The translations under genes and the position numbers were made by a program. The notes beneath the pieces were generated by a model. The model was not told the DNA's origin and ran no database searches. It worked only from the letters and a program-made list of their open reading frames with translations. DNA of 64,000 nt, from the NCBI GenBank assembly GCA_964614645.1, contig CAZTMA010000001.1, positions 1,295 through 65,294 of the forward strand, written 5' to 3'. Each line of letters opens with the position of its first letter. Position 1 is the stretch's first letter. Positions 9,002 to 58,753 of this stretch are shown piece by piece. This DNA comes from an uncultured Anaerolineales bacterium. Its GTDB lineage: Bacteria > Chloroflexota > Anaerolineae > CG2-30-64-16.

Positions 9002-9170
9002 GGCTGGCCTCACAGTAGGTTGCTTGTCCATGAAAACACAATGCCCGGAGAAGCGCAAACGCGGTCTACTTCCCTTTCTCTGTCTACCAGTTACCCTGTG
9101 CTATAATGCGAAGCACTGTCCGGCTGCCCATGCGTGGCTCGGCCGGTTCCTGCGATCTCCGGAGGCCCTG

Positions 9171-24911: not shown

Positions 24912-25193
24912 TTCCTGGGCCTTGTATACTGCCTCGTAATCGATCTGACTCTGTACCGTTCAGTGCACCTGTTGTCCAGGCACCTGTCATCCATGCCCGG
25001 GTGGACCGGCACGAACCCGTGTGCATGACTACACTCACTCGATGCTCCGGTTTGGTGTGCAACAAATAAAGATTGCTTCGTTTAGTCAGTTCGTGCCGGA
25101 AGGAGGAGCGTTCTTCGTCTCATCGGAGCATTTACGTACGTTCACTGCCACATTCTCACGACGGTGAAAGAACCCCAACGAGGAGGACTATCC

Positions 25194-27260: not shown

Positions 27261-27281
27261 CCCGGCTCACCGCACCTGGAT

Positions 27282-27360
27282 CCTATCCGAAAATCCGTAG
27301 CATAGGGCCTTGTGCCCGTCGGAACGCCCACAAGGGGCCAGGCGGCTCTTTTCGGATAGG
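27282..27360 (+). terminator. Nested hairpin terminator after SBP1
   Basis: Outer stem cctatccgaaaa/ttttcggatagg enclosing an inner stem gggccttgtg/cacaaggggcc. Confidence 0.5.
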
Positions 27361-27460
27361 TCTTTGACGCAGTAGTTACATCAGTTGAAGGGGGGGCCTC
27401 AGGCGACGGTTCGTATAGCCGCCCGAGGCCCGCCCCGAACCTCCCCTGTTAATTCGCGAC

Positions 27461-27488
27461 TTGACTACTGTTCAAAATCGATTATGAT
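27461..27488 (+). promoter_or_regulatory. Sigma70-like promoter for SBP2
   Basis: TTGACT, 16-nt spacer, TATGAT. Confidence 0.4.
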
Positions 27489-27834
27489 ACGCGTCAACAT
27501 CTTGTGGCGGCGCCCTGTACGCGTCTCTGAGCTGTTCTGCCAATCGCATCTCTCCGCCAACGGTCCTGGACTGCGTCATCTGCATCTATCCGCTGCGCCG
27601 CCCGTACTGCGGCAGCCGCACTTCGCACCTCAGTTTCGTGCCGGACAGAGCAGCCATGGCTGAATTGACGGAAGCACTGCTATTGTAGAGACTCCCTATC
27701 GGCGCCATTCAAGCCTTGATCAGAAAGGGGGTGGTAAGGAGCGATCGAATCTCATCGTAGACCTAGGGACCCGACATCGGGTGGAGGCAAGCTTTCCACC
27801 AAACATCGCCTGCTTCGAAGGAGAAAAAGGAGAC

Positions 27835-29938: not shown

Positions 29939-30002
29939 CAACGGAAATCTCGAAATGGGCCGGCCGCCTGCAGGCGACCGGCCCGACGGCGGAGGAAATA
30001 CA

Positions 30003-31001
30003 GTGATAATTTACATTATACGCCGCCTTCTGATGCTGATCCCGATCCTGATACTGATGTCCATGGTGGCCTTCTTCCTGATCGAGCTGCCGCCGGGCGA
30101 CTATGTCAGCATGCGCATCACGCAGTTGGAGATGTCGGGCGTCCAGGTATCTGCTGATGAGGCGGCACGCTTGACCGTGCAGTATGGCCTGGACAAGCCG
30201 ATGCCGATTCGCTACTGGCGCTGGGTTTCAGGCATCGTACTACGCGGCAACTGGGGCTTTTCCTTGCAGTGGAACAAACCCGTCAACGAGATTCTGGCCG
30301 AGCGGGTGCCCATGACCATCCTGATTTCATTCTCGGCGCTGATTCTCTCATGGGCGATAGCGATTCCCATCGGCATCTACTCGGCGACGCACCAGTACTC
30401 TTTCCTGGACTACGTCTTTACGATTCTGGGATTTATAGGTGCGGCCACGCCGGGGTTCCTGCTGGCGCTCATCCTGGCCTGGCTGCTGTTCGCAAAGTTC
30501 GGCTTCTCGATGCTCGGCCTTTTCTCGAAAGAGTACCTGGAAGCCCCCTGGAGCATGGCCCGCGTCTGGGATCTGATTAAGCACATCTGGCTGCCGCTCA
30601 TCCTGGTCGGCCTGGGCAGCACGGCCTCCACCATCCGCGTGGTGCGCAACAATCTGCTCGACGAGCTCAACAAGCAATATGTGATTGCGGCGCGCTCCAA
30701 GGGCCTGTCCGAGTGGAAGCTGCTCATGAAGTACCCGGTGCGGCTGGCCATTAACCCGCTGCTCAGCACGGTCAGTTGGGTTCTGCCGGGGCTGGTCTCC
30801 GGCTCGGTCCTGATCGATATCGTTCTGAGCCTGCAGACGACCGGTCCGGTGCTGCTGCGGGCGACGCTGGCACAGGACATGTACCTGGCGGGCAGCATCG
30901 TGCTGATCCTGAGCGCCCTGACTGTCCTCGGCGCCCTGGTCGGTGACCTGTTGCTGGTCCTGGTAGATCCCCGCATTCGTTTCGGGAGGGCGGAAAAGTG
31001 A
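30003..31001 (+). CDS. ABC transporter permease (OppB/DppB-like)
   Basis: Begins VIIYIIRRLL. Contains the EAA-like loop region and 6 TM helices. GTG start after a GGAGGA site; the ORF-track start at 29955 is less likely. Confidence 0.8.
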   Translation: MIIYIIRRLLMLIPILILMSMVAFFLIELPPGDYVSMRITQLEMSGVQVSADEAARLTVQYGLDKPMPIRYWRWVSGIVLRGNWGFSLQWNKPVNEILAERVPMTILISFSALILSWAIAIPIGIYSATHQYSFLDYVFTILGFIGAATPGFLLALILAWLLFAKFGFSMLGLFSKEYLEAPWSMARVWDLIKHIWLPLILVGLGSTASTIRVVRNNLLDELNKQYVIAARSKGLSEWKLLMKYPVRLAINPLLSTVSWVLPGLVSGSVLIDIVLSLQTTGPVLLRATLAQDMYLAGSIVLILSALTVLGALVGDLLLVLVDPRIRFGRAEK

Positions 31002-32164
31002 GCACCCAAACACCCATCGCGGTCCCCCAGACTCCAGATGCACCTCCGGAGACGATCCTCGAGCCAGGACAGGCGGTGAAGGATGAGCGCTATTACTACG
31101 CGAGCCAGTGGCAGCTGATTCGCTGGCGTTTCTCGCGCCACAAGGCGGCCATGTTCTCCGTCTTTATGCTCGTCATCCTGTATATCCTGGCAATCTTTGC
31201 GGAGTTCTTCTCGCCTTACACGCCGGATACGCGCTTCGAAGGCTACCAGAGCGCGCCGCCCACGCCGATCCACTGGATCAAGCCCGACGGCGGCGGCTTC
31301 GGCCCGTACGTGTTCGACACGGTGCGCGAGCTCGATACGGAAACCTTCAAGTACATCTACCAGCCGGACGAGACAAAGGTGATCCCTCTCAAGTTCTTCA
31401 TCCGGGGGGAGCCATACAAGCTGCTCGGGTTTATCCGCACGAACGTGCACCTGTTCGGCGTCGAGGAGGGCCGGGTCCTGCTCTTCGGCTCGGACCGGCT
31501 GGCGCGTGATGTGTTTACGCGGACGCTCCACGGCGCGCGCATCTCGCTGTCCATCGGCCTGGTGGGCGTGTTCATCAGCTTCGTGCTGGGTGTGCTCCTG
31601 GGCGGGATTTCGGGCTACTTCGGCGGGGTGGTGGACGACATCATCCAGCGCGTGATCGACTTCCTGATCGCGATCCCGGGCCTGCCCCTGTGGATGACGC
31701 TCTCCGCCGCGCTCCCGCGGGACTGGCCCACACTTAAGCTGTACTTCGCGATTACCATTATTCTGTCCATCCTCGGCTGGACCGGCCTGGCCCGCGTCGT
31801 GCGCGGCAAGATGCTGGCCCTGCGCGAGGAGGATTATACGCTGGCCGCGCGCGGCGCGGGCGCCAGCGCTTGGCGCATCATCACGCGCCACCTGCTGCCC
31901 GGCTTCACGAGCCACCTGATTGTGTCGATCACCTTCAATATCCCGGGCATGATTCTGAGCGAGACAGCCCTGAGCTTCATCGGCGTCGGCATCCAGCCGC
32001 CGGCTGTGAGTTGGGGCACGCTGCTGCAGGATGCGCAGAATCTGACGGCGGTTGCGCAGCAGACCTGGCTCATGATCCCCGCGCTCTTCGTGATTGCGAC
32101 GGTGCTGTTCTTCAACTTCGTCGGCGACGGCCTGCGCGATGCGGCCGATCCGTATTCGCGCTAG
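30998..32164 (+). CDS. ABC transporter permease (OppC/DppC-like)
   Basis: N-terminal extension then the BPD_transp_1 core. 4-nt overlap with the previous gene. Confidence 0.85.
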   Translation: MSTQTPIAVPQTPDAPPETILEPGQAVKDERYYYASQWQLIRWRFSRHKAAMFSVFMLVILYILAIFAEFFSPYTPDTRFEGYQSAPPTPIHWIKPDGGGFGPYVFDTVRELDTETFKYIYQPDETKVIPLKFFIRGEPYKLLGFIRTNVHLFGVEEGRVLLFGSDRLARDVFTRTLHGARISLSIGLVGVFISFVLGVLLGGISGYFGGVVDDIIQRVIDFLIAIPGLPLWMTLSAALPRDWPTLKLYFAITIILSILGWTGLARVVRGKMLALREEDYTLAARGAGASAWRIITRHLLPGFTSHLIVSITFNIPGMILSETALSFIGVGIQPPAVSWGTLLQDAQNLTAVAQQTWLMIPALFVIATVLFFNFVGDGLRDAADPYSR

Positions 32165-32176
32165 AGGGGGAATCGT

Positions 32177-33199
32177 ATGACAGACACAGCTAACCTGTTC
32201 CTGGAAGTAGAGAACCTCAAGACCTACTTCTTCCTCCATGAAGGCACGGTCAAAGCCGTCGATGGCGTGAGCTTCAACCTGTACAAGGGCAAGTCCCTCG
32301 GCGTGATCGGCGAGAGCGGCTGCGGCAAGTCCGTGACCGCGCACTCGATCCTGCGCCTGGTGCCGAGCCCGCCCGGCCGCGAGGTGGAGGGCAAGATTTT
32401 GATGCACCTCCACGAAGGCAGCAACGGCAGCTACAGCGAAGAAATCGTCGACACCCTCAAGCTGGAGCGCAATGGGCCCAAGATGCGCAGCATCCGGGGC
32501 AAGGAAGTCGGCATGATCTTCCAGGAGCCGATGACCTCCTTCAGCCCCGTGCACACCATCGGCAGCCAGATCATGGAGAACCTGGTCATCCACACTCCAA
32601 ACATCTCAAAGAAGGAAGCGCGCGAACGCACCATCGAGATGTTGCAACGTGTAGGCATCGCCCGGGCGAACCAGTTGGTGGACGCCTACCCGCACCAGTT
32701 CAGCGGCGGCATGCGCCAGCGGGCCATGATTGCCATGGCGCTCATCTGTGGCCCGAGCATGTTGATCGGCGACGAGCCGACGACTGCCCTGGACGTGACC
32801 ATCGCGGCGCAGATTCTGGACCTCATCAATGACCTGCAGTCCGAGTTCAACATGGCGCTGATGTACATCAGCCATGACCTGGCCGTGGTCGGCGAGATGT
32901 CCGACGAGATCATGGTGATGTACCTGGGCCTGGTGATGGAGCACGCCAGCACGGACGAAATCTTCGACAACCCGCTGCATCCGTACACGCTGGCACTCTG
33001 GCGCTCGATTCCGACCATCGAGGGCAAGCTGGAGCGGCTCGTGCCTATCAGCGGTACGCTGCCCAGCCCGTTCGCCCATGTGCCGGGCTGTCCCTTCTTC
33101 TCGCGCTGCGAGCGGCGCAAGCCGGGAATCTGTGATGCGGCGTTGCCGCCCTTGAAAGAAGTCGCGCCCGGACATTTTGTGCGCTGCGTGTTGTATTAG
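32177..33199 (+). CDS. ABC transporter ATP-binding protein (OppD/DppD-like)
   Basis: GESGCGKS, FSGGMRQR, LIGDEPTTALD, plus a C-terminal oligopeptide-ABC Cys-rich tail. Confidence 0.9.
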   Translation: MTDTANLFLEVENLKTYFFLHEGTVKAVDGVSFNLYKGKSLGVIGESGCGKSVTAHSILRLVPSPPGREVEGKILMHLHEGSNGSYSEEIVDTLKLERNGPKMRSIRGKEVGMIFQEPMTSFSPVHTIGSQIMENLVIHTPNISKKEARERTIEMLQRVGIARANQLVDAYPHQFSGGMRQRAMIAMALICGPSMLIGDEPTTALDVTIAAQILDLINDLQSEFNMALMYISHDLAVVGEMSDEIMVMYLGLVMEHASTDEIFDNPLHPYTLALWRSIPTIEGKLERLVPISGTLPSPFAHVPGCPFFSRCERRKPGICDAALPPLKEVAPGHFVRCVLY

Positions 33200-33203
33200 A
33201 GGC

Positions 33204-34238
33204 ATGAACCGTATGACCAACCAATCACAATCGCCATTGCTGGAGGTCCAGGACCTCAAGAAATACTTCTACGGTCATCGGGGTTTCATCAAGCGCGAGA
33301 TGGTGACCGTGAAGGCGGTGGACGGCGTCAACCTGCAAGTGCAGGCCGGCGAGACGCTGGGCATCGTCGGTGAGAGCGGCTCGGGCAAGACGACGCTCGG
33401 CCGCTGCATCACCCGGCTGTACGAGCCGACCGGCGGCAAGGTCTACCTGAACGACGAGAGCGGCAAGGTCTCCGTTCTCGAGCTGCAAGGTGATGACCTC
33501 AAGAAGTTCCGCCGCAAGGCGCAGACCATCTTCCAGGACCCCTACTCGTCGCTCAATCCCCGCATGAACGTCCTGCAGACGGTGGGCGAACCGCTCCTGG
33601 TGAACAACCTCGCCAGGGGCAAGGAGATCGAGGAGCGGGTGACGGAGACCATCCTGCAGGTGGGGCTGCGTGTAGAGCACCTGCAGCGCTATCCTCACAG
33701 CTTCAGCGGCGGCCAGCGCCAACGCATCGGCATCGCCCGCGCGTTGGTCTTGCAGCCGAAGCTGATCGTGGCCGATGAGCCCGTGTCCGCGCTGGATGTG
33801 TCCATCCAGGCGCAGGTGCTGAACCTGCTGATGGACCTCCAGCAGAAGTATCAGCTCACCTACTTGTTCATCTCCCACGCCATGAGCGTGGTGCGCTACA
33901 TCAGCGACCGCATCGCCGTGATGTATGCCGGCAAGCTGGTGGAGCTGGGGCCGAAGACCGAACTGCTGGAAAACCCGCGCCACCCGTACACCGAGGTGCT
34001 GCTGGCCGCAGTCCCGCGCACGGCGGAGCGGCATCGCGGCAAGCGGAACGTCACGCCCGGCGAGCCGCCGGACCTGGCGAATCTGCCCAAGGGCTGCGTG
34101 TTCATGCCGCGCTGCAAGTATGCCCAGGATATCTGTCGGGAGGAAGCCCCGCAGCTCAGGCAGGTGGGGACCAACCTGGCAAGCTGTCACTTTGCCGACT
34201 CGCTTCAGCTTCAGGGTCTCAGGGTAGAAAAGGCATGA
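33204..34238 (+). CDS. ABC transporter ATP-binding protein (OppF/DppF-like)
   Basis: GESGSGKTT, FSGGQRQR, IVADEPVSALD. Start taken at ATG 33204 (MNRMTNQ...). Confidence 0.9.
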   Translation: MNRMTNQSQSPLLEVQDLKKYFYGHRGFIKREMVTVKAVDGVNLQVQAGETLGIVGESGSGKTTLGRCITRLYEPTGGKVYLNDESGKVSVLELQGDDLKKFRRKAQTIFQDPYSSLNPRMNVLQTVGEPLLVNNLARGKEIEERVTETILQVGLRVEHLQRYPHSFSGGQRQRIGIARALVLQPKLIVADEPVSALDVSIQAQVLNLLMDLQQKYQLTYLFISHAMSVVRYISDRIAVMYAGKLVELGPKTELLENPRHPYTEVLLAAVPRTAERHRGKRNVTPGEPPDLANLPKGCVFMPRCKYAQDICREEAPQLRQVGTNLASCHFADSLQLQGLRVEKA

Positions 34239-42164: not shown

Positions 42165-42372
42165 CTCTGGGCGAACAACCTGCGTACATAGTTGTGGCAA
42201 ACAGTGTGCTTGTGCTTCACGGGCCTTGCATCCTGAGTGGCTTTCTCATATAATGTCTGCTGTGTGGATCGCATCTTCTCTTGTGTGAAACGCGGGCTTT
42301 CGCTCCATAATTCACACAGGAGAAAGAAATGCGCTGGCTGTATGCATTCCGGTAAGACAGGAGAGTGCGCTC

Positions 42373-43236
42373 ATGGCAGATTTCGGCTCCATCATCAAGC
42401 AGTTGAACGAGTTGAAGAAGGAGGTCGAGAAGGTCGGTCCGGACCTGGCTCCCAAGGTCGGAGAAATCAGTGATGCCCTTGGCCGATTGTCGGTCGAGGT
42501 TGGTGAAATGACGATCGAGCACCGCCCCCAGGTCGAGCCGCCCACGCGGCCGGGCCGGGAGATCGTCGGCGGTGCGGAAACGCAGGACTTCCCCGATTGC
42601 TGCGCGCTGGGGGACGACCGCGGGTACTACTGCTCAGGCACGCTCATCGCACCGAACGTAGTTGTGACGGCGGAGCACTGCCAGGGTCTGACGCGGGTCT
42701 ACCTGCGGGGCACCGACGTGACGAAGCCGGACGGCGCCGAGATTATCCCCATCGCGGAGGAATTCGTCCACCCCGAACTCGACCTGCGCGTCCTCGTGCT
42801 CAAGCACAACGCCGCTACCCCCCCGCGTACGGTCGGCCATGCAGCGCAGTTGGACGGCATCAAAGAGGTCACGCTTGTCGGCTTCGGCACGATCGACCCG
42901 GATGGCCGGTTCGGCTACGGCATCAAGCGCCGGGTGGACGTGCCCATCAAGACGTTCGACTGTGGGCAGATGGGCGAGGCGAAGCGGTTCGGTTGCCTGC
43001 CGGGCCGGGAGATTGTCGCCGGCCATGCAGGGCTGATGCTGGATTCGTGCAAGGGTGACAGCGGCGGGCCGCTCTACATCCAGCAGGATGGCGAGTTCTA
43101 CCTGCTGGGCGTGACCTCACGCGGCGCGCGGGGCGGGTTCCGCGAGTGCGGCGACGGCGGCATCTACGTGCGTGTGGACCTGTGCCTGGATTGGATTCGC
43201 GAAGTGACCGGCGCGGAAATCGCGCAGGCCGCGTGA
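42373..43236 (+). CDS. Cytoplasmic trypsin-like (S1) serine protease with a ~55-aa N-terminal coiled-coil extension (island gene A)
   Basis: IVGG...TAEHC (His)...GDSGGP (Ser). No signal peptide or TM segment. Confidence 0.8.
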   Translation: MADFGSIIKQLNELKKEVEKVGPDLAPKVGEISDALGRLSVEVGEMTIEHRPQVEPPTRPGREIVGGAETQDFPDCCALGDDRGYYCSGTLIAPNVVVTAEHCQGLTRVYLRGTDVTKPDGAEIIPIAEEFVHPELDLRVLVLKHNAATPPRTVGHAAQLDGIKEVTLVGFGTIDPDGRFGYGIKRRVDVPIKTFDCGQMGEAKRFGCLPGREIVAGHAGLMLDSCKGDSGGPLYIQQDGEFYLLGVTSRGARGGFRECGDGGIYVRVDLCLDWIREVTGAEIAQAA

Positions 43237-43260
43237 TCGCGGAGGGCAAGGAGGTCACCG

Positions 43261-44313
43261 ATGCCTAAGGAACTCAACCGCCAGGCCCACATGGTCCTGC
43301 GCGAGGCTCTGACCGGTCTCTATTGGGACGTGAAGGACATCAGGCTGGTCACGAAGGACGCAGGGCTCAATGTCGGACGTATCGGTTGGAACGAGGCGGC
43401 ACAGATCTCGTGGGAGAACGTCCTGAATGAGGCCAACAATCAAGGCTTGGTCAAGGTGCTGGCGCAGCGCGTGCTGAAGGATTACCCCAACGAAGAGCAG
43501 ATCAAGCTGGCTGCGGCAGGCGAACTGACCGCCATCCCAACCCCTTCGCTACCTGCGGAGGACCTGGCCCGCTTGAAGACGGGGGGCCGGCTCGAGAAGA
43601 TCATCGGTGCGGCGAGCACCTTCCGGCCGATCGGGTTCCTGGAGCGCGGCATGAAGGTCTCCCGTTCGGTGTGCCGTGTCGTTCTGCCGCTGAAGCCGGG
43701 CGAGGATAAGCCCGGCACCGGCAGCGGCTTCCTCATCGACGGCAACATTCTCATCACCAACCATCACGTGCTGCCCGATGCAGCGACGGCCCGCGCCGCG
43801 CATGTTGAATTCAACTATCAAACGGACGAATTGGGTGCGGAGCTGACGCCGACCCCCTATGACCTCGATCCGGACGCGCCCAATGGGTTCGCCACCTCGC
43901 TCCTGGATGAACAAGGTGGCGACGACTGGACCGCGGTCAAGGTCAAGGGCGATCCTGCGACGAAGTGGGGCACGCTGCGCATCTTCAAGCTGGAAGCAGA
44001 GGCCATGCCGAAGGAGAAGGATGAGGTCATCGTCATCCAGCATCCCGGCGGCGGACGCAAGCAGATTGCCCTGTCGCACAACACGGTTGTCGAGGCGAGT
44101 GAGCGGCGCGTCCAGTACCTGACCGACACCGCCGAAGGCTCATCAGGCTCCCCGGTGTTCGATGTGAAGTGGCGCGTGGTCGCGCTGCACCACGCTGGCG
44201 ACTGGCTGACCGGCGTGACGACCGGCAAACCGGTATATGCCAACCAGGGGATCCACATCAATCAGGTTATCGCCGGGTTGAGAAAAGCAGGAATGTTAAC
44301 GGACGGCTCTTGA
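43261..44313 (+). CDS. N-terminal ~70-aa helical adaptor (EAD-like, 'N-dom') fused to an active Trypsin_2-like serine protease (island gene B)
   Basis: ITNHHV (His), DDWTAV (Asp), GSSGSPV (Ser). N-dom L..LY......R.V.KDAGL...RI.....AQI.W..V..EA is shared with genes C, D and E. Confidence 0.75.
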   Translation: MPKELNRQAHMVLREALTGLYWDVKDIRLVTKDAGLNVGRIGWNEAAQISWENVLNEANNQGLVKVLAQRVLKDYPNEEQIKLAAAGELTAIPTPSLPAEDLARLKTGGRLEKIIGAASTFRPIGFLERGMKVSRSVCRVVLPLKPGEDKPGTGSGFLIDGNILITNHHVLPDAATARAAHVEFNYQTDELGAELTPTPYDLDPDAPNGFATSLLDEQGGDDWTAVKVKGDPATKWGTLRIFKLEAEAMPKEKDEVIVIQHPGGGRKQIALSHNTVVEASERRVQYLTDTAEGSSGSPVFDVKWRVVALHHAGDWLTGVTTGKPVYANQGIHINQVIAGLRKAGMLTDGS

Positions 44314-44325
44314 GGAGGTCGCATC

Positions 44326-44928
44326 ATGTCGTGGCACGCATCGCTCAGCCGGTTGGTCCAGGTCCTCGCGAATCTCTATGACACCGAAGCACAGGCTCGC
44401 ATTGTGGCGAAGGATGCCGGACTGGACCTGACGCGCATTCCTCTCAGTGGCAGCGCACAGATCTTCTGGGATGCCATCGTGACCGAAGCCCACAAACAGA
44501 ACTGCATGGAAGCGCTGGTGCAGCAGGCGCGGAGTGAGTTTCCCCTGAACGCAGAACTGCAGGCGACCTTGCAGGCAATTCAGCAGGACTATCTCGCCTG
44601 GCAGCAGGAGCCGGTCGTGGTTGAGCCAGCTGCCCCGCGCATCTACCAGCTCACGCCGCAGCAGAAACGGCCGCTTGTCGATGCGCTGCTCGGTTGCCCC
44701 ACGATGCAAGCCCGCCAGAGCCGGGACACTGTCGTAGAGGATCTGCGAGCAGATATCCGGAACAACGTCGAGCGGCACAACGCGCCGCGCCTGGATGTGA
44801 ACAGCATCGTCAGCACTGCGCTGGTCTACGCGGGCGGGCTCCAGGAACTGATCGAGGCCGTGCGCAACTACGAAGGCGACTCGCTGCCGATGATAGAAGT
44901 GGACCGGGTGATCGCTTCGTTCGGGTAA
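44326..44928 (+). CDS. Adaptor protein: N-dom + C-terminal ~90-aa helical 'X' domain (...GGL.ELIEAVR.YEGDSLPM..VDRVI..FG) (island gene C)
   Basis: By-eye alignment of its N-dom to gene B and of its X domain to genes D and E. Confidence 0.65.
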   Translation: MSWHASLSRLVQVLANLYDTEAQARIVAKDAGLDLTRIPLSGSAQIFWDAIVTEAHKQNCMEALVQQARSEFPLNAELQATLQAIQQDYLAWQQEPVVVEPAAPRIYQLTPQQKRPLVDALLGCPTMQARQSRDTVVEDLRADIRNNVERHNAPRLDVNSIVSTALVYAGGLQELIEAVRNYEGDSLPMIEVDRVIASFG

Positions 44929-44963
44929 GGCCATAGCGTCAGTTGCACAGGAGGGCCGGGGGG

Positions 44964-46640
44964 ATGGACGTCGCCAAACAGCGGGAAATCGTGGAGGCTC
45001 TCACTGCCTGTCCCAGCATGGGCAGCGAGCCGCGCCGCGACGCGGTCGTGGAAGAACTGCGCGAGAGCATCCGGTCTGCGATCGACCGCAGCGCGTCAGG
45101 CCGCGATGATGTGACGGCGATTGTCCGCGCCTGTCTCCAGTTCTTCAACGGGCTGGAGGAACTGGTGGCCGCGGTGCGCGTACGCGACGGGGACTCGCTT
45201 CCGATGCAGAACCTCGACCGGGTGATTCTGCGGGTGTTCGGCTTCGACCTGGCGGAGGAGGAGATGGGCCTGCGGTTGCTGACCGTGCTGGCGGGCATCC
45301 AGGCCGCACCGGACGACCTCCAGCGCACCTACCGGCGTCTCCTGCCGCCCGACGTGGCGCCCGCCCCGGATGCTCGCGGCCTGTTCAGCGTGTTGCCGCA
45401 TCTCTGGCAGATATCGCGTGAACTGGCGACGCAGAGCCGCACCGGCAACGTACCGATCCTCGACTTCGTCGAACAACTGGCGCGCGATGCGCCGGGCAGC
45501 GTCGCGGGCCAGTTGCGCGGCTGGGCAACCGAGGTGACATCCCTGGTGCTCTCGACCGGACCCGCGGGACGGCCGGCGGACATGGTTATGCGCGGCACCG
45601 GAACCGGCGACGGCGGGGTCAGCGCGCTGGACCCGCGGCTGGCCATCCTCGCCAGCGTGCTCGCGGCCCTCTATCCTTCTATAGAGGCGTCGGGTGAGCT
45701 GGTGGCCGCAGCGCGCCTGAATCCGGTCGGCATCGAGTTTCGCGAACTGCCCTCGCTCAACTGGCACAACATCCTGACGGCTGCCGCGCGGCGCGACCGC
45801 GTTAGCCACCTGGTCGAAGCTGCGCTGGCAGACCAGCCAGACAACCCCTGGCTGAAGGTGGCGCTGGGCCAGCAGCAGTCGGCTTATGAGCCCGAGGTGC
45901 GGCCTTCCGATGAGCCCACAGCGGTAGCGCAACCATCGCCGGCCGCGGGAAGCCCGCTGCCGGCCTGGCCGCAGCACGTCAGCTTTCTGGAAGAAGCCCT
46001 GAATCGCGCCCAGGCGGTGCTGCTCATCCAGTTACCAAATGGGGGCAGTGGTACCGGCTTCCTCGTACAAGGTGATCTCCTGATTACCGGTGGATTCAAC
46101 ATCCGCAATGTTGCCGAGGCACGCGAGGCTGTCGTCCGCTGCAATTTCCAGCGTACGATGGGAGAACTGATGACGACTTCTGAGGAGCTCCGCCTGTTGC
46201 CGGATCAAGGCTTTGCAACCACAGAGGATCGGCTATGGACTGCGGTGCGGGTTGCCAGGAAGCCGACTGAACGCTACGGCTATCTGCACCTTGAGCCGGC
46301 CAGCCCCCAGGTCAAGGATCGGGTCAGCCTGATCCATCATACCGGAGGCGGGCCGAAGCAACTGGAACTTCTAAATCGGATTGTAATTGATGTGGACAAA
46401 TCCAGTCTCCAGTATGACACGGAGAACCCCCTCCACAGCATCAAGCAGCCCGGGTCCGGGGGGGCGCCGATCTTCGATGTGAATTGGCGGGTCGTCGGGG
46501 TGCATCGTGCGCACGGCACGCTGAAGGCCCTTTCCGGTGGGGAGCGCCGTTGCAGCGAAGGGGTGCACATCAATGTCATCATCGAGGGGTTGAAGGCCGC
46601 CGGCCTGTATCTGGGCAAGGGGGAGGGTGAGACACCATGA
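44964..46640 (+). CDS. X domain + linker + N-dom + degenerate (His- and Ser-less) trypsin-like domain, a pseudoprotease (island gene D)
   Basis: Aligned to gene B, ITNHHV becomes ITGGFN and GSSGSPV becomes GSGGAPI. The X domain sits at the N-terminus (EELVAAVRVRDGDSLPMQNLDRVI). Confidence 0.65.
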   Translation: MDVAKQREIVEALTACPSMGSEPRRDAVVEELRESIRSAIDRSASGRDDVTAIVRACLQFFNGLEELVAAVRVRDGDSLPMQNLDRVILRVFGFDLAEEEMGLRLLTVLAGIQAAPDDLQRTYRRLLPPDVAPAPDARGLFSVLPHLWQISRELATQSRTGNVPILDFVEQLARDAPGSVAGQLRGWATEVTSLVLSTGPAGRPADMVMRGTGTGDGGVSALDPRLAILASVLAALYPSIEASGELVAAARLNPVGIEFRELPSLNWHNILTAAARRDRVSHLVEAALADQPDNPWLKVALGQQQSAYEPEVRPSDEPTAVAQPSPAAGSPLPAWPQHVSFLEEALNRAQAVLLIQLPNGGSGTGFLVQGDLLITGGFNIRNVAEAREAVVRCNFQRTMGELMTTSEELRLLPDQGFATTEDRLWTAVRVARKPTERYGYLHLEPASPQVKDRVSLIHHTGGGPKQLELLNRIVIDVDKSSLQYDTENPLHSIKQPGSGGAPIFDVNWRVVGVHRAHGTLKALSGGERRCSEGVHINVIIEGLKAAGLYLGKGEGETP

Positions 46641-47797
46641 AGTTTGAGGATATCGTGCGCCGGCTGGCGGATTTGTTGGCCGAGTTGTTCCCCGCAGCGG
46701 CCGCTGGGCCGCGCCTTGCCGAGGCAGCCGGCATCGAGTTGGAAGGCAGCCTGCTCGACGGGGGCCAGGATCGGGTAGCCTGGTGGCGCGCCGCGCTCAG
46801 CACAGTGACGGAGGAACAGGTGGGCAAGCTGCTGGCGCTGGCCCAGCAGGAGCGTGCCGGTTCCTTTGCCCTGTTGATCCTGCAGAGCGAATTCGAGCGG
46901 TGGTGGCGCGAACGCCACCAGGTCTACCGCGGGGCCAAATCCGGAGCCCGACCTGAACCGGTGTCCCCACCGGCACCCATTTCGAAGGACGTGGAGCCGC
47001 CCGAAACCACCGGGCCATCCGCTCCGCAATCCTCTTTCTCCGCTGGGGTTGCGGCAGTGACTACCCTGCGGCTGGACGCTGCCGTGCCGGAGCGCGTCGT
47101 AGTAGGCCGGCCCTTCACGATTGCCGTGGCCGTCCGCCAACTGGCCTCCCCGCGGCTGAGCGAGGCGGATATGCCTGTGATGCGCTCCAGCGATGCGCAG
47201 GTGTTCTGGCCCGCGGGGCAGCCGTTCGTGCGGCTGCGCCTCGAGGTCTCGTCGGCATACTGCACGGTGAACAATGAGTCATCGCGCGCCTTCAGGCTCT
47301 ACCAGGCCCACGACTCGCCCACATTCTACTTCTCCCTGACGCCCACCGTTACCGGCCAGATCGATGTCCATATCGAGCTGTACCAGGAAGATGACCTCAT
47401 CGGCAGCACGCGCATCAACACCACGGCGGATGAGCAGGTGCAGCGGCTGGCCGGCACGGTCGAGATCGTGATGCACAGCCAGACCGTCGAGGCTGCGCGG
47501 ATGACGGCCGCGGCGAAGATGAAATTGGCGAAGACGCTGCTGCGCTGCCCGACCGTCCTCGACCGGGAGAATCGGGATGCGATCGTCACCGATCTGCCCG
47601 AGGAGATTCGGCTTGGAGTGAGCCGCAGCGATTCAGCCCTGCTCGACGTCCAGAACATCATCGGGCTGGCTTTGAACTATGAGGGAGGGCTGAACGCCTT
47701 CATCGAGGGGGTGCGCCTGTTCGAAGGCAATTCGCTCCCCATGGCGAAGGTGGATCGCGTCCTGGGCGAGATTGGTTGGGTCGGTCTGGCGGACTGA
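46637..47797 (+). CDS. N-dom + beta-rich middle domain + C-terminal X domain (island gene E)
   Basis: 4-nt overlap with gene D. C-terminus ...GGLNAFIEGVRLFEGNSLPMAKVDRVLGEIG. Confidence 0.65.
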   Translation: MKFEDIVRRLADLLAELFPAAAAGPRLAEAAGIELEGSLLDGGQDRVAWWRAALSTVTEEQVGKLLALAQQERAGSFALLILQSEFERWWRERHQVYRGAKSGARPEPVSPPAPISKDVEPPETTGPSAPQSSFSAGVAAVTTLRLDAAVPERVVVGRPFTIAVAVRQLASPRLSEADMPVMRSSDAQVFWPAGQPFVRLRLEVSSAYCTVNNESSRAFRLYQAHDSPTFYFSLTPTVTGQIDVHIELYQEDDLIGSTRINTTADEQVQRLAGTVEIVMHSQTVEAARMTAAAKMKLAKTLLRCPTVLDRENRDAIVTDLPEEIRLGVSRSDSALLDVQNIIGLALNYEGGLNAFIEGVRLFEGNSLPMAKVDRVLGEIGWVGLAD

Positions 47798-50037: not shown

Positions 50038-50093
50038 GACTCTTGCAACAGACATGCCTGACGATTACGACTGACCAGGATAAGGACAACATC

Positions 50094-50876
50094 ATGCCAA
50101 AAATCGCCATTACCGGAAAAGGCGGCGTCGGGAAGACGACGTTGACCGCGCTGCTCTCGTACGTTTATGCCCAGCAGGGCCACGATGTGATTGCCATTGA
50201 CGCGGACCCCGCGGGCAACCTGGGGATGGCCTTCGGGCTCAGTGCGGCGCTGGATGCTGAGCTCAAGCCCATCGCGGAGATGGAAGCCTTGATCTACGAG
50301 CGCACCGGCGCCCAGCCCGGCACGGTCGGCGGCTGGTTCAAGCTCAACCCTAAGGTGGACGACATCCCTGACAATTTCAGCATCCACCACCGGGGCGTGC
50401 GGCTCCTGCGCCTGGGCACGGTGCGCGGGGGCGGGACGGGTTGCCTGTGTCCTGAAAATGCGCTGCTCAAAGCCCTGGTCACGCACCTGTTGTTGCGCAA
50501 GAACCAGACGCTTATCCTGGATATGGAAGCGGGCGTGGAGCACCTGGGCCGGGGCACAGCCGGCTCCGTCGATGCATTCGTGATTGTAGTGGAGCCGGGC
50601 CTGCGCAGCCTGGGCACTGCGGAGCAGATCCGCGGGCTGGCTGCAGAAATCGGCATCCATCAGGTGTACCTGGTCGCAAACAAGACCCGTCATGCGGACG
50701 ATGAGGCCTTTATCCGGGCCCATGCGGATGGGATGCCCGTGTTGGGCAGCCTGCCGTATACCGCCGATGCAGTGGCCGCGGATCAGGGAGGGCTGGCCGT
50801 TTTCGACCAGGCGCCTGAGCTGCTGGCGGCCGCAGAGCGGATCGCGGATGCCCTGGCAGAACTTGCAGTGACGTGA
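50094..50876 (+). CDS. CooC-family P-loop ATPase (nickel-insertion/MinD-ParA class) with a CxC motif
   Basis: IAITGKGGVGKTT, IDADP, and GTVRGGGTGCLCPENALLKAL closely resembling the CooC metal-site region. Confidence 0.8.
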   Translation: MPKIAITGKGGVGKTTLTALLSYVYAQQGHDVIAIDADPAGNLGMAFGLSAALDAELKPIAEMEALIYERTGAQPGTVGGWFKLNPKVDDIPDNFSIHHRGVRLLRLGTVRGGGTGCLCPENALLKALVTHLLLRKNQTLILDMEAGVEHLGRGTAGSVDAFVIVVEPGLRSLGTAEQIRGLAAEIGIHQVYLVANKTRHADDEAFIRAHADGMPVLGSLPYTADAVAADQGGLAVFDQAPELLAAAERIADALAELAVT

Positions 50877-50882
50877 GGCGAG

Positions 50883-51851
50883 GTGGCTATGACTGAGGAA
50901 GCGCGCTTGAGTGCCTACGACGATGCACCCGTCTACACCATCAAGACGGTCGTGCAGGAGACGGGCATCCCGCCGGCCACGTTGCGGGCCTGGGAACGGC
51001 GTTACGGGGTATTGTCGCCCGGCCGCAGCGACGGCGGCTATCGGCTCTATTCGGAGCGCGATATCGCCATCCTGCGCTGGCTGAAAACGCAGGTGGATAC
51101 AGGCGTCTCCATCAGCCGGGCTGTGGCGCTCCTGGAACTGCGGCACCAGGCCGGGGAGCAGCCGGAACGCAAGACCGCCCGATCCGGGCCGGATCAGGCG
51201 CTACTGGCCCCGGCGGGAGCGCGCAGCGCCGATGCCATCGGTGATGAACTGGTGGATGCTCTGTTAGCATTCCAGGAAGCGCGCGTGGAAACCCTCCTGA
51301 ACGAGGCCTTCGCGCTGTATCCGGTGGAAGCGGTGGCCGAGGACATCATCACGCCGGTCCTCGTTGAAATCGGTGAGATGTGGCACCGAGGCGAGGCGAG
51401 CGTCGTGCAGGAGCACTTCGCCACGGCAATCCTGCGCCGCCGGCTGACCGCCCTGTTCCACGCCTACGCGCAGCCCGCCGCGGGGCCGCTGGCCATGACC
51501 GGCTCCGGCCCGTCGGAATGGCATGATGTGGGCATTTTGCTCGTCAGTCTGGTGCTGCGCCGGATGGGTTGGCGGGTCATCTATCTGGGCCAGAATGTGC
51601 CTGCAGACCACTTGGGGCAGGAGATCGCCCGGCTGCGGCCCGCGCTGGTTTGCCTCTCCGCCAGTACCCGCGAAAGCGGAGACGCGCTGGCAGATGTATA
51701 CGAGTTAGTGCGCGCTCTGCCGGAGCCCCGGCCGCGCCTGGTCTTCGGCGGCCGCGCGTTCAATATTCACCCGGAACTGCGGAGCCGCTTTGCCGGCACC
51801 TACATCGCAGGCAGCGCTCGCGAACTCGCAAACGAATTAAGCCTCGGCTGA
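50883..51851 (+). CDS. carH: MerR-family regulator with C-terminal cobalamin-binding domain (CarH/LitR-like light sensor), paralogue 1
   Basis: MerR HTH (YTIKTVVQETGIPPATLRAWERRYG), W-x9-EH motif (EMWHRGEASVVQEHF), B12 Rossmann motif (EWHDVG). Confidence 0.8.
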   Translation: MAMTEEARLSAYDDAPVYTIKTVVQETGIPPATLRAWERRYGVLSPGRSDGGYRLYSERDIAILRWLKTQVDTGVSISRAVALLELRHQAGEQPERKTARSGPDQALLAPAGARSADAIGDELVDALLAFQEARVETLLNEAFALYPVEAVAEDIITPVLVEIGEMWHRGEASVVQEHFATAILRRRLTALFHAYAQPAAGPLAMTGSGPSEWHDVGILLVSLVLRRMGWRVIYLGQNVPADHLGQEIARLRPALVCLSASTRESGDALADVYELVRALPEPRPRLVFGGRAFNIHPELRSRFAGTYIAGSARELANELSLG

Positions 51852-51862
51852 TCTTACCCCTT

Positions 51863-51890
51863 GTAGAGACGTTCCGCGGAACGTCTCTAC
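51863..51890. terminator. Perfect 28-bp palindrome after carH-1 (terminator or operator)
   Basis: gtagagacgttccgc|ggaacgtctctac. Confidence 0.45.
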
Positions 51891-51900
51891 AATCCACCAA

Positions 51901-51948
51901 ACAAACTATAAACAAACTATTGACATCTGTCTGCTTCTGTGCTATAGT
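51901..51948 (+). promoter_or_regulatory. carH-2 promoter with 11-bp direct repeats overlapping -35 (candidate CarH operator)
   Basis: ACAAACTATA AACAAACTAT TGACAT; TTGACA, 17-nt spacer, TATAGT. Confidence 0.5.
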
Positions 51949-52019
51949 GCTGAGGATTGTGCAGGTAATCTACCGTGCGGAGATGTTCCGCCGGAATGTC
52001 CCTGCAAGCGTAGCCAGGA

Positions 52020-52988
52020 GTGAGCATCAACGTGAACGAGCAGCGAGGCGAGACAGATACGCAGCCCGTGTATAACATCAAGGCGGTGGTGGAGGCCACG
52101 GGTCTGCCCGCGGCCACCTTGCGCGCCTGGGAACGGCGCTATGGCGCCCTTGTGCCCGGCCGCACCGACAGCGGCTACCGGCTCTATTCGGCTCAGGACA
52201 TCAAGGTGCTGCGCTGGCTCAAGGCGCGCGTGGAAGAAGGTCTCACGATTAGCCAGGCGATTGCCCTCCACCGCCATCGCAGGCTGGGCGAGCCCGGCGC
52301 AGCGGCCGACGAGCCTCGCGCTGAGAGCCGCCAGGGCCTGACCGGCGCGCGGGATATGCTGCTGGCTGCGCTGATAGATTTTGAGGAGGCGCAGGCTGAC
52401 CGGCTTCTGGAAGAGGCCTTTGCCGTGTACGGCCTCGAAGCGGTGACCGAGCATGTCATCGGCCCCACGATGGTGCAGATCGGTGACCGTTGGCATCGCG
52501 GGGAAGTGACCACCGCGGTCGAACATTTCGCGAGCAACTATCTGCGCCGCAAGATAGACGCCATCATCAACGCCGCGCCGCGCAGCGCCGCCGGCCCCCT
52601 GGTTGTCTTGGGATGTGCGCCGAACGATTGGCATGAGCTTGGGCTGCTCCTCATCTACCTGTTACTGCGCCGCCGCGGCCTGCGCACCCTTTACCTGGGC
52701 CAGAATGTGCCGGTGCTGCAGTTTGTCGAAGAAATGGAACGTCTGCGCCCCGCCATCGTCGTTATTGCTGCTACCACTGCTGAGACCGCTGGCGGCGTTG
52801 GGGAGCTGGCTGCAGCCCTACAGAGCCTGCCCGAACCGCGGCCGGTGTTTGCCTTTGGAGGTCGGGCCTTTAACGTTCAGCCTGAATTGCGCAGGGAGAT
52901 TCCGGGCATCTTTCTGGGCGAGAACGCACGTTCCGCCGTCGAGTACCTCGTAGCCTTACTCGATGACATTAAAACAGTTAGTCCGTAG
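52020..52988 (+). CDS. carH: MerR-family B12-binding regulator (CarH/LitR-like), paralogue 2
   Basis: YNIKAVVEATGLPAATLRAWERRYG, DRWHRGEVTTAVEHF, NDWHELG. Confidence 0.8.
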   Translation: MSINVNEQRGETDTQPVYNIKAVVEATGLPAATLRAWERRYGALVPGRTDSGYRLYSAQDIKVLRWLKARVEEGLTISQAIALHRHRRLGEPGAAADEPRAESRQGLTGARDMLLAALIDFEEAQADRLLEEAFAVYGLEAVTEHVIGPTMVQIGDRWHRGEVTTAVEHFASNYLRRKIDAIINAAPRSAAGPLVVLGCAPNDWHELGLLLIYLLLRRRGLRTLYLGQNVPVLQFVEEMERLRPAIVVIAATTAETAGGVGELAAALQSLPEPRPVFAFGGRAFNVQPELRREIPGIFLGENARSAVEYLVALLDDIKTVSP

Positions 52989-57088: not shown

Positions 57089-58753
57089 ATGACAGGCAAA
57101 AGGTTGTATTCAGAACGTATGCAACAACGAAGAATTACGGACGACCTGGATGCCCTGCTCCAGGTCCTGCCGCCACCCGTCGAACAAGCGTTGCGGGAAT
57201 CCAATCAGGGCGATAGCCTGCTGGAAGTCATCCTGGACCTGGGAAGGCTGCCAGAGGCCCGTTTTGTGGACCGCGAGCTGGTGTTGAGCCAGCGCGAGGT
57301 CAGCGAAGATGACCTGAAGTTTGTCATCGATCGCATCGGCATGTTCACCGGCGACAACCGGGCCGGCATCGAGCGCACGCTCCACCGCATCTCGTGTATC
57401 CGCAACCGGCAGGGCCGCATCATCGGCCTGACCTGTCGTGTCGGCCGCGCGGTGTACGGCGTGATCGATATCATCGAGGATATCGTCAAGTCCGGCCAGA
57501 GCATCCTGCTGCTGGGCCGGCCGGGCGTCGGCAAGACGACCTTGCTGCGCGAGGCCGCGCGCATTCTGAGCGAGAAGGCGCGCGTCGTCGTCGTGGATAC
57601 GTCCAACGAAATCGGCGGCGACGGCGACATCCCGCACCCGGCCATCGGCCGCGCGCGGCGCATGCAGGTGGCCGCGCCCGAGTTGCAGCACGAGGTCATG
57701 ATCGAGGCCGTCGAGAATCACATGCCGCAGATCATCGTCATCGACGAGATCGGTCGCGAGCAGGAAGCCGCGGCAGCCCGCACCATCGCGGAGCGCGGCG
57801 TGCAACTGGTCGGCACTGCGCACGGCAACAGCCTCGAAAATCTGCTCATCAACCCGACTCTGTCAGACCTGGTGGGCGGCATCGAGAGCGTCACGTTGAG
57901 CGACGAAGAAGCGCGCCGCCGCGGCACGCAGAAGTCTGTGCTGGAACGCCGCGCGCCGCCCACGTTCGATGTGCTGATCGAGCTGCAGGATCGCCAGCGC
58001 ATGGCCGTGCATCACAGCGTGGCCGCAGCCGTGGATGCCATCCTGCGGGGCCGGTCGCTGCAGCCGGAGATTCGTTTCCGTGACGAGAGCGGCCAGGTGC
58101 GCATTGAGAAGGCGCCCGCGCCGCTGCCCGAATCGCGCACCATGGGCGCGGGGCCGGGGATGAACCGTTTGCCTTTCGAGAAGCGCGGCAATGGCCGCTC
58201 CAATGATGTGGAGCGCGGCGGTCCTATGCGCGGCAGCCAGCCGCAGTATCAGGCGACCCCGGATGAAGCGCCGCAGCCCGCGCGCCAACAGGCTCAGACC
58301 CTGCGGGTCTATCCCTATGGGGTGGGCCGCGGCCGGCTCATTCAGGCCGCACAGAACCTCGGTGTGCCGATTGCGTTGGTGGACAGCCTCGAGCAGGCCA
58401 ACGCGGTCGTGACGCTGAAGAATTACTATCGCAAGCACCCGCAGCCCATCTCGGATGCGGAGCGCCGCCGGATTCCGGTGTATGTGCTGCGCGCCAATAC
58501 CATGAATCAGGTCGAGTCGTTCCTGGGCGATGTGTTCGGCCTGCCGGTGGTGATGGAGGATCCGGTGGAGCAGGCCGTGGCCGAGACCCAGGAGGCCATT
58601 CGCCGCGTACTGGGAGGATCGAACTCGGAGGAACTGCGGCCCGCAGGGGCGGACGTCCGGCGGATGCAGCACGAGATGGCGCGGGCCGCGAATCTCGTGT
58701 CGCACAGCTACGGCAATGAACCGCGGCGCCGCGTACGTATCTTTCCGGGCTAG
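57089..58753 (+). CDS. AAA-type ATPase of the SpoIIIAA/Ycf45-like family with C-terminal R3H-like nucleic-acid-binding region
   Basis: LLLGRPGVGKTTLLRE, VVIDEIG Walker B, sensor region GTAHGNSLENL. An alternative start is the ATG at 57119. Confidence 0.7.
   Translation: MTGKRLYSERMQQRRITDDLDALLQVLPPPVEQALRESNQGDSLLEVILDLGRLPEARFVDRELVLSQREVSEDDLKFVIDRIGMFTGDNRAGIERTLHRISCIRNRQGRIIGLTCRVGRAVYGVIDIIEDIVKSGQSILLLGRPGVGKTTLLREAARILSEKARVVVVDTSNEIGGDGDIPHPAIGRARRMQVAAPELQHEVMIEAVENHMPQIIVIDEIGREQEAAAARTIAERGVQLVGTAHGNSLENLLINPTLSDLVGGIESVTLSDEEARRRGTQKSVLERRAPPTFDVLIELQDRQRMAVHHSVAAAVDAILRGRSLQPEIRFRDESGQVRIEKAPAPLPESRTMGAGPGMNRLPFEKRGNGRSNDVERGGPMRGSQPQYQATPDEAPQPARQQAQTLRVYPYGVGRGRLIQAAQNLGVPIALVDSLEQANAVVTLKNYYRKHPQPISDAERRRIPVYVLRANTMNQVESFLGDVFGLPVVMEDPVEQAVAETQEAIRRVLGGSNSEELRPAGADVRRMQHEMARAANLVSHSYGNEPRRRVRIFPG

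Follow-up and report, generated by a model that had tools for sequence, protein, structure and literature searches.

How a set of cytoplasmic proteases might be assembled and switched on where no nucleoside triphosphatase (NTPase) is encoded beside them is the question raised by five adjacent genes, A to E, at positions 42373-47797 of a 64-kb stretch of DNA from an uncultured Anaerolineales bacterium (contig CAZTMA010000001.1; the whole stretch of 64,000 nucleotides is called the window below). An initial annotation, made from the letters alone, had read these genes as an operon of trypsin-like proteases connected in a chain by two small shared domains, "N-dom" and "X", in the manner of the adaptor domains of systems that serve conflict and programmed cell death, and had found no NTPase or sensor among them. 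Here, the shared domains were identified as effector-associated domains (EADs) of two described families, EAD1 and EAD2. The reading that we favour, tentatively and on sequence comparison, is that A-E encode a module in which EADs wire serine proteases together, of the type used in conflict or programmed cell death; its switch would be driven by assembly and would not depend on an NTPase in cis. The genes were taken from the list of open reading frames (ORFs), complemented for D by the database protein P0001, and are laid out as follows.

Upstream intergenic region: 42165-42372, forward strand, 208 nt; presumed promoter region of A-E.
Gene A: 42373-43236, forward strand, 287 amino acids; helical pro-region (residues 1-63), catalytic domain (residues 64-275), no EAD.
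Gene B: 43261-44313, forward strand, 350 amino acids; EAD1 (residues 6-86, nt 43276-43518), linker, predicted active Trypsin_2 protease (residues 154-309, nt 43720-44187).
Gene C: 44326-44928, forward strand, 200 amino acids; EAD1 (residues 7-83, nt 44344-44574), EAD2 (residues 118-197, nt 44677-44916).
Gene D: 44964-46640, forward strand, 558 amino acids; EAD2 (residues 10-88, nt 44991-45227), VMAP-M0 (residues 103-191, nt 45270-45536), EAD1 (residues 228-299, nt 45645-45860), dead Trypsin_2 protease (residues 363-513, nt 46050-46502).
Gene E: 46637-47797, forward strand, 386 amino acids; divergent EAD1 (residues 1-99, nt 46637-46933), Pro-rich linker, β-sandwich (residues 140-265, nt 47054-47431), EAD2 (residues 291-378, nt 47507-47770).

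A Pfam scan identified N-dom as EAD1 (PF19955) and X as EAD2 (PF19956). EAD1 was matched above the gathering score in B (E-value 4.4e-6), C (2.5e-11) and D (2.8e-6), and below it in E (0.0035), while EAD2 was matched in C (3.9e-20), D (1e-19) and E (7.5e-14). BLASTP comparisons among the operon paralogues linked the same copies, with E-values of 2e-41 over 344 residues for B-D, 2e-10 for B-C and 4e-23 for C-E, together with 6e-21 for C-D and 2e-14 for D-E. When the N-terminal domain of E was aligned with an EAD1 profile built from B, C and D only, hhalign returned a probability of 74% (E 2.9e-5), and by this profile comparison the domain is a divergent EAD1. Chance similarity of the repeats was rejected on the Pfam, BLASTP and hhalign statistics, and the copies that had been aligned by eye are thus joined by profiles. 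There are four copies of EAD1 (B, C, D and the divergent one of E) and three of EAD2 (C, D and E) in adjacent genes, at least one of which lies on an enzymatic effector, B, where EAD1 is fused to an active-type Trypsin_2 domain. The domain calls match exactly the wiring that had been proposed, in which B is linked to C via EAD1, C to D via EAD2, and D to E via both. The EAD2 of C is nearest to those of E and D (45-48% identity). Local hidden Markov models of the operon EAD1 and EAD2, run against all six frames of the window, returned no further copies.

The genes themselves are real, tightly packed and under purifying selection. The co-directional arrangement, the gaps of 24 nt (A-B), 12 nt (B-C) and 35 nt (C-D), the ATGA overlap of D and E and the ribosome-binding sites described in the initial annotation were all reproduced, with AGGAG/GGAGG-type motifs 6-12 nt upstream of all five starts. 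The 35-nt gap follows from placing the start of D at ATG 44964, which fits P0001 (100% identical, 558 amino acids); the mechanically called ORF begins at TTG 44943. In this 64% G+C sequence, all five ORFs have the codon composition GC3 > GC1 > GC2 (G+C at the third, first and second codon positions). The unit ends convergent with trkH at 47804, and the 208-nt upstream region is its sole long non-coding gap, in which we infer the promoter to lie; a promoter and terminator consensus scan (σ70) gave nothing above shuffled background around A-E. No hydrophobic segment that would fit a signal peptide or transmembrane (TM) helix was found in A-E, where the highest Kyte-Doolittle mean over 19 residues was 1.54, in agreement with the earlier view that none of the five proteins carries a signal peptide.

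EAD1-10 were defined computationally by Kaur, Burroughs, Iyer and Aravind (eLife 2020; PMC7159879), and were predicted, by analogy with Death-fold domains, to dock effectors on core systems by like-with-like binding. Homotypic EAD-EAD binding is therefore a published prediction. In this framework further EAD copies lie on effectors, often in an adjacent gene and in some cases at another place in the genome; EAD1 serves mainly to recruit effectors, EAD2 mainly brings signalling peptidases to VMAP, and some VMAPs carry both (PMC7159879). EAD systems without an obligatory NTPase, NucA-trypsin and EACC1-caspase, were described in the same work (PMC7159879), and a 2021 follow-up generalised the scheme as the "EAD principle" (PMC8195603). 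The adaptor-wired conflict or cell-death protease chain first proposed for this locus is thus correct in kind, but a chain of that kind had already been published. Likewise, the absence of an NTPase in cis is not in itself new, because both dispersed EAD copies and NTPase-free EAD systems are on record (PMC7159879).

What could stand in for the NTPase is suggested by gene E. Its three parts, described before as N-dom, a β-rich middle domain and X, were recovered as the divergent EAD1, a β-sandwich and EAD2. With an alignment made of the matches from a search of cluster representatives, AlphaFold2 modelled residues 140-265 as a β-sandwich with a predicted local distance difference test score (pLDDT) of ~98; a single-sequence model of E had a pLDDT of 42. 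In an exhaustive phmmer search, E matched 708 cluster representatives at E<=1e-3, of which 267 passed E<=1e-10; almost all of the alignments fall on E ~140-285, at 35-50% identity. Domain partners were counted in the 105 of these 708 representatives that were scanned with Pfam: EAD7 in 34, CHAT in 16, EAD1 in 7, Pkinase in 6 and EAD2 in 5, then TCAD9, FHA and SIR2_2 in 3 each, EAD8, nSTAND1 and bDLD1 in 2 each, and TIR and EAD9 in 1 each. Proteins with this β-domain typically have a variable N-terminal part (median 175 amino acids) and a short C-terminal part, and include the following architectures.

P0023: EAD1-β-CHAT.
P0053: EAD1-TCAD9-β-CHAT.
P0041: β-CHAT.
P0115: propeller-β-CHAT.
P0138: propeller-β-EAD2.
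P0027: EAD8-β-EAD2.
P0130: FHA-β-EAD1.
P0044: M10 peptidase-β-EAD1.

A module that stays constant while its EADs and effectors are interchanged is the signature by which Kaur et al. recognised core components, and E is read as a hub on these grounds; under the substitution logic of the EAD principle (PMC7159879), the EAD1-β-CHAT protein P0023 and the EAD8-β-EAD2 protein P0027 count for that reading. E itself, as EAD1-β-EAD2, holds an EAD where its relatives hold a fused caspase-like protease. These data support the idea that E is probably the hub of the operon, that its β-sandwich may itself be a sensor or hub, and that the module may be an undescribed core. The earlier statement that neither an NTPase nor a sensor was present therefore stands in its first part, as set out below, and is doubtful in its second. 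A full-text search of PMC7159879 and PMC8195603 showed no name for the β-sandwich, and our literature search found no paper mentioning DUF7363, the family that matches E weakly in Pfam (1.7e-4) and whose model detects the β-domain itself, again weakly, in 24 of the 105 scanned representatives. Fold searches gave generic β-sandwich matches only; resemblances to ZU5/UPA/FIIND and PYD were kept as leads and not accepted as membership. Among the relatives, EAD1-β-CHAT P0023 is encoded by a solitary gene amid housekeeping genes, and the contigs of two others, P0030 and P0034, were too short for neighbourhood context.

The proteins that E could gather through its two docking domains are B, C and D. 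In B, the EAD1 is followed by a Trypsin_2 domain (Pfam 2.1e-21) in which the catalytic residues H169, D222 and S295 are conserved; B is counted as a presumably active protease on this basis, as had been proposed. Among solved structures it comes closest to Spl and glutamyl endopeptidases and to HtrA, in each case weakly (E 3e-5 to 8e-3). Protein C, previously given as N-dom plus X, is in Pfam a pure adaptor, EAD1-EAD2, with no other domain. Its orthologues form 13 clusters at 65-100% identity, 12 with both domains and one a 140-residue fragment with EAD2 only. Small two-EAD adaptors also occur elsewhere, as EAD8-EAD2 proteins (P0136, P0165) analogous to C.

The C-terminal half of D is a paralogue of B (30% identity over 344 residues, E 2e-41; Trypsin_2 in Pfam at 7.1e-8), in which all three positions of the triad are replaced, with GGF for NHH, (R/G/Q)(L/I)W for DDW and GSGG/GAGG for GSSG. 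This loss is identical in four close orthologues. With a ratio of nonsynonymous to synonymous substitution rates (dN/dS) of 0.16, D is maintained though catalytically dead. Its domains and its dead triad were thus as first described; the stretch that had been called a linker is VMAP-M0, matched at 6.3e-6 and 27.1 bits against a cutoff of 25.9 (residues 110-198 of the 565-residue form), and likewise annotated on D orthologues, where it is marked weak. In a more distant D orthologue (locus L015), the catalytic Ser is kept and His and Asp are lost.

Gene A has no EAD and was analysed as a protease in its own right. It is an S1 (chymotrypsin-fold) serine protease (Pfam Trypsin, 1.8e-18) whose triad, H102, D137 and S230, is intact as initially reported, with D229 as the Asp194 equivalent; D224 at the position of chymotrypsin D189 implies a predicted trypsin-like specificity for Arg/Lys. 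Its nearest solved structures are plasmin(ogen) catalytic domains (2.4e-18, against ~1e-13 for bacterial trypsins). Residues 51-RPQVEPPTRPGREIVGG-67 of A (window 42523-42573) align with human plasminogen KPQVEPKKCPGR/VVGG through the zymogen activation loop (slashes mark the cut, which is predicted for A), which places an activation-type site at 59-RPGRE/IVGG-67, with the neo-N-terminus motif at 64-IVGG-67. The stretch VEPPTRPGREIVGG is invariant in four orthologues and the preceding 50 helical residues are variable; in the orthologues L001, L005 and L008, A is 86-92% identical, with more variation in the pro-region than in the catalytic domain. From the aligned loop, the invariant site and the variable pro-region, A looks like a zymogen with a 63-residue pro-region. 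Its dN/dS is 0.12, and it retains two or more of the cysteine pairs that are canonical in S1 proteases (C87/C103 and C226/C259). Compared with chymotrypsin-family zymogens such as plasminogen and trypsinogen, A shares the S1 fold, the triad, the Asp189 and Asp194 equivalents and the pro-region, and with plasminogen the motif (R)PQVEP..PGR-(E)-IVGG aligned as above; it differs from them in having no signal peptide, no kringles, an extra Glu before IVGG and a cytoplasmic operon context.

The disulfide cysteines and the zymogen-type pro-region of A, which recall secreted trypsins, are what speaks for a quite different explanation, namely that the locus encodes secreted digestive or cell-surface proteases and accessory proteins that merely share helical regions. 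We consider this very improbable. Neither a signal peptide nor a TM segment is found in A-E, the helical regions match EAD1 and EAD2 specifically, with scores that exceed the Pfam gathering values, and D is catalytically dead yet under purifying selection.

If the operon is a module that switches by assembly, it could operate as follows. The β-sandwich of E would be the constant, signal-receiving module, with its EAD1 and EAD2 as docking sites, and EAD1-EAD1 and EAD2-EAD2 contacts would join E, the adaptor C and the scaffold D in a multivalent complex. This complex would concentrate B, the sole active-type protease that bears an EAD, and induced proximity would activate it; the dead paralogue D would compete with B or template it, in a manner like that of c-FLIP and caspase-8. 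B would then cleave the EAD-less zymogen A at the conserved RPGRE/IVGG loop, and cleaved A, as a trypsin-like (Arg/Lys) executioner, would degrade cellular proteins. Input may also come via other EAD2 proteins, for example the membrane-bound EAD2-TM-FGE-sulfatase protein of related assemblies described below.

Whether an NTPase could be supplied from the vicinity was assessed in 53 ORFs of the window, all outside the ABC-transporter block at 29955-34238, which were scanned with Pfam. No MoxR, vWA, STAND, GAP1 or VMAP-C gene was found in the operon or in these ORFs. At the orthologous loci, no MoxR AAA+ or vWA gene appears in the Pfam annotations and no NTPase neighbours any of the operons examined, nor was any recognised core (VMAP, iSTAND, GAP1, Ubl or STAND) with an EAD found in the operon, the scanned ORFs or the annotated orthologue flanks. 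D has no VMAP-C (PF20028) match at E<=1, and the same model detects VMAP-C in P0146, a VMAP with three tandem EAD2 copies before it. An NTPase lying just outside the operon coordinates was thereby rejected for the scanned ORFs of the window and for the orthologous loci. The initial annotation's statement that the operon holds no NTPase is borne out, and the orthologues are not regularly flanked by a STAND NTPase.

Further members of the EAD2 network probably lie outside the operon. Among the EAD2-only matches of the search with E was P0166, which consists of EAD2 (residues 15-93), a TM helix (residues 105-123), a Thr/Pro-rich linker and an FGE-sulfatase domain, and is encoded at L019:2004-3221 and L020:2510-3727 (GCA_048222995.1 and GCA_048223075.1). 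These two assemblies also hold operon orthologues (L001 and L011), although a shared accession does not strictly prove that the P0166 and operon contigs belong to the same organism. FGE-sulfatase and C-type-lectin-like domains are proposed antigen sensors of such systems (PMC8195603; bioRxiv 10.1101/2023.09.22.558884). The EAD2 of P0166 is 75% identical to that of the EAD8-EAD2 adaptor P0136, and the gene upstream of P0166 encodes at least 835 residues with no Pfam match and no Walker A motif. A metagenome scan for P0136 found it only on contigs of 1.3-1.7 kb, with no informative neighbours. With D, C and a joint EAD1+EAD2 profile as queries, word-indexed protein searches returned nearly only orthologues and are uninformative on partners in trans, and an EAD2-alignment scan of the genome collection used a pattern so narrow that it gave two loci only, of no use for paralogues.

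These extra-operonic copies bear on the competing explanation that A-E form a satellite effector or signalling module of an NTPase core encoded in trans, such as a vWA-MoxR-VMAP system or an EAD-bearing STAND/nSTAND1 protein, reached perhaps through EAD8-EAD2 adaptors, with NTP hydrolysis and not E as the switch. We regard this main rival as possible, if somewhat less likely. It accords with the published rule that one EAD copy lies on the core and others elsewhere, with the recruitment of peptidases to VMAP by EAD2 and with the VMAPs that carry both EAD1 and EAD2 (PMC7159879); VMAPs with EAD2 arrays exist (P0146, 3xEAD2-VMAP-C), and both assemblies with an extra-operonic EAD2 protein contain orthologous operons. 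Set against it, no core was seen in the scanned ORFs within 42 kb upstream or 16 kb downstream, or beside the orthologues; the sole extra EAD2 locus recovered is without an NTPase, its upstream ORF included; the E β-module occurs mostly in proteins without an NTPase domain (2 with nSTAND1 among the 105 scanned); and the joint occurrence of P0166 and the operon is subject to the limit on shared accessions given above.

Several observations weigh against an assembly-driven switch centred on E, and the first of them are also points for the satellite explanation. The framework holds that a core component (VMAP, iSTAND, GAP1 or Ubl) always bears one of the EAD copies and that dispersed copies correlate with a core elsewhere (PMC7159879). 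D contains VMAP-M0, a region defined by Kaur et al. 2020 (PMC7159879) and typical of the third component of vWA-MoxR ternary systems. The EAD2 of E is 55-58% identical to that of P0166, compared with 48-50% to that of C and 30-34% to that of D, and its next nearest relative is the EAD2 of the EAD8-EAD2 adaptor P0136 (55-58%); EAD8 has been described on nSTAND1-FGS proteins (nSTAND1 being NTPases; bioRxiv 10.1101/2023.09.22.558884). The remaining points concern A and the EADs themselves. A lacks an EAD, and its tie to the complex is operon membership only; its S1 disulfide cysteines look odd for a cytoplasmic enzyme; and since R62 and I64 are separated by an additional Glu, plain cleavage of the trypsin type would fail to yield the IVGG terminus. 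This Glu would suit a Glu-specific cut, for which B, with its weak likeness to Spl and glutamyl endopeptidases, offers a hint at best. A search by sequence turned up no solved EAD structure, nor did the literature searched yield experimental or structural studies of EAD1 or EAD2.

The distribution of the operon was examined in related genomes. Eight or more related Anaerolineae assemblies (L001, L002/L006, L005, L008, L009, L011 and L013, and also L015) carry it at one and the same place in the chromosome, between a 2-hydroxyacid dehydrogenase gene and trkH/trkA. In L001, L002/L006, L005, L011 and L013, the left flank consists of GH127, an HpcH aldolase and the 2-hydroxyacid dehydrogenase, and the right flank of trkH, trkA, a CooC-like gene and two MerR/B12 regulators. 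Even in L015, with E at ~53% and D at ~58% identity, the site can be recognised, and over 20 kb the window runs collinear with L005 (Anaerolineae bacterium isolate AnMBR.bin525), their nucleotide identity being 82-88%. In a genome scan, the bearers were Anaerolineae metagenome-assembled genomes from anaerobic bioreactors, and one C orthologue came from "Chloroflexi bacterium ADurb.Bin325". In the ADurb.Bin325 lineage (L008, L009 and L010), the same site holds A-B-C-E without D (L008:10594-10648, L010:2548-2602), so that D is an accessory gene, gained or lost. The operon is carried vertically by filamentous Anaerolineae.

Such stability raises a third explanation, that the operon serves housekeeping or developmentally regulated proteolysis in filamentous Anaerolineae, for example filament fragmentation or stress turnover, and reuses EAD scaffolds for a purpose other than defence against invaders. 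It would account for the strict synteny amid core metabolic and transport genes down to ~53% identity of E, for a base composition of A-E that matches the flanks, and for purifying selection close to that of neighbouring genes (dN/dS 0.09-0.17 for A-E, with E at 0.09, versus 0.04-0.11 for flanking housekeeping genes). No mobile-element genes were found nearby in the scanned ORFs. Nor did PADLOC-DB v2 give a system-level match: the protease domains of A and B match LmuA and RT-Protease models only, and C, D and E received no system or family assignment from PADLOC and NCBIfam. This explanation nevertheless seems improbable. The EAD1, EAD2, VMAP-M0 and β-module families co-occur with CHAT, TIR, SIR2, STAND and FGS, which is the vocabulary of conflict systems; gene content varies by lineage, D being present or absent; and B, C and D evolve 1.5-2.5x faster than the flanking genes.

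The assembly-driven protease module was then compared with described systems. With those of the EAD principle it shares the EAD1 and EAD2 families, which are fused to trypsin-like peptidases and present more than once in neighbouring genes, and a Chloroflexota host that is filamentous ("multicellular"); it differs from them in having no recognised core in cis (VMAP-C, iSTAND, GAP1, Ubl or STAND), and in its five-gene two-EAD chain, dedicated EAD1-EAD2 adaptor, dead protease and putative β-sandwich hub. The supplement of Kaur et al. 2020 has no entry for ADurb.Bin325 proteins. With the ternary system of MoxR, vWA and VMAP it has in common the N-terminal EAD2 of D followed by VMAP-M0, the commonest VMAP middle region, and trypsin-like peptidases, the usual VMAP-linked signalling domains, whereas MoxR, vWA and VMAP-C were not found in the operon, the scanned window ORFs or the annotated orthologue flanks. 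NucA-trypsin (System 3) and EACC1-caspase (System 4) are likewise protease-centred, sometimes use EAD1 or EAD2, have no obligatory NTPase and are predicted proteolytic cascades, as here. By contrast, A-E and the adjacent genes encode no NucA/HNH endonuclease, A-E contain no EACC1 TM component and no CHAT/caspase domain, and the host phylum differs.

The animal death-inducing signalling complex offers an analogy only, in which C would correspond to FADD, B to caspase-8 and dead D to c-FLIP, with the EAD2-TM-FGS protein of related assemblies as a parallel of the receptor. A more ambitious version of the assembly-driven reading, which we think unlikely, would make the operon an NTPase-free bacterial counterpart of extrinsic apoptosis. 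The β-sandwich of E, or a membrane receptor that has EAD2 on its cytoplasmic side, a TM helix and an FGE-sulfatase/C-type-lectin-like sensor on its outer side, or both, would nucleate an EAD2/EAD1 scaffold of E and C, C being FADD-like. The initiator protease B would be recruited there, tuned by D in the manner of c-FLIP, and would turn the plasminogen-like zymogen A into the executioner; the β-sandwich of E would in addition define a large family of constant core modules, so far undescribed, for EAD- and CHAT-based systems.

The remainder of the window has a different character. In its scanned ORFs, housekeeping functions only were found, including SurE, ABC transporters, CorA, peptide-binding proteins, glycosyltransferases, GH127 and TrkAH, as well as CarH-like regulators, a Lon-N domain protein, Tmk, Gmk, a rhomboid protein and PriA. 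Two P-loop proteins were found there apart from ABC ATPases, one of them CooC/ParA-like (50043-50876) and the other a SpoIIIAA/R3H ATPase (57089-58753), and each is a conserved housekeeping neighbour. The CooC/ParA-like gene is followed by two tandem paralogous regulators with a MerR-type helix-turn-helix and a B12-binding domain (CarH-like; 50883-51851 and 52020-52988), and this arrangement (50043-52988) is kept in all orthologous loci. At 25164-29883 lie two adjacent paralogues of ~700 residues, family-5 solute-binding proteins (SBP_bac_5), after which 29955-34238 is probably an oligopeptide ABC transporter operon, two apparent counterpart ORFs in L008 being annotated ABC_tran/oligo_HPY. The region 8814-13762 encodes a protein of up to 1211 residues with at least five CarboxypepD_reg/transthyretin-like repeats and then a second protein with similar repeats; their mechanically called starts overlap neighbouring ORFs, and the true starts are uncertain. 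A 766-residue ORF at 3174-5474 combines three DUF5671 stretches with a C-terminal DUF3842.

Taken together, the adaptor families and the way they are fused to trypsin-like peptidases were already known, as were dispersed copies and EAD systems free of an NTPase. New here are the five-gene two-EAD chain with its dedicated adaptor, a pseudoprotease that is conserved, a cytoplasmic zymogen resembling plasminogen, inheritance that is vertical and syntenic, and a large undescribed β-sandwich family that marks E as the probable hub. Were the module in truth a satellite of an NTPase core, it would be ordinary within the published framework. EADs were proposed in 2020 as bacterial counterparts of the Death, CARD and DED domains, and in this compact and chromosomally stable operon both major EAD types, a two-EAD adaptor, an active-type and a dead protease that both carry EAD1, and a separate zymogen stand together without a large NTPase, a composition that makes it tractable for reconstituting the rules of EAD-EAD pairing and proximity-driven protease activation. 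The β-sandwich family of E, with its 708 representatives, may represent a core or sensor, so far unrecognised, of protease systems that multicellular bacteria operate without an NTPase.

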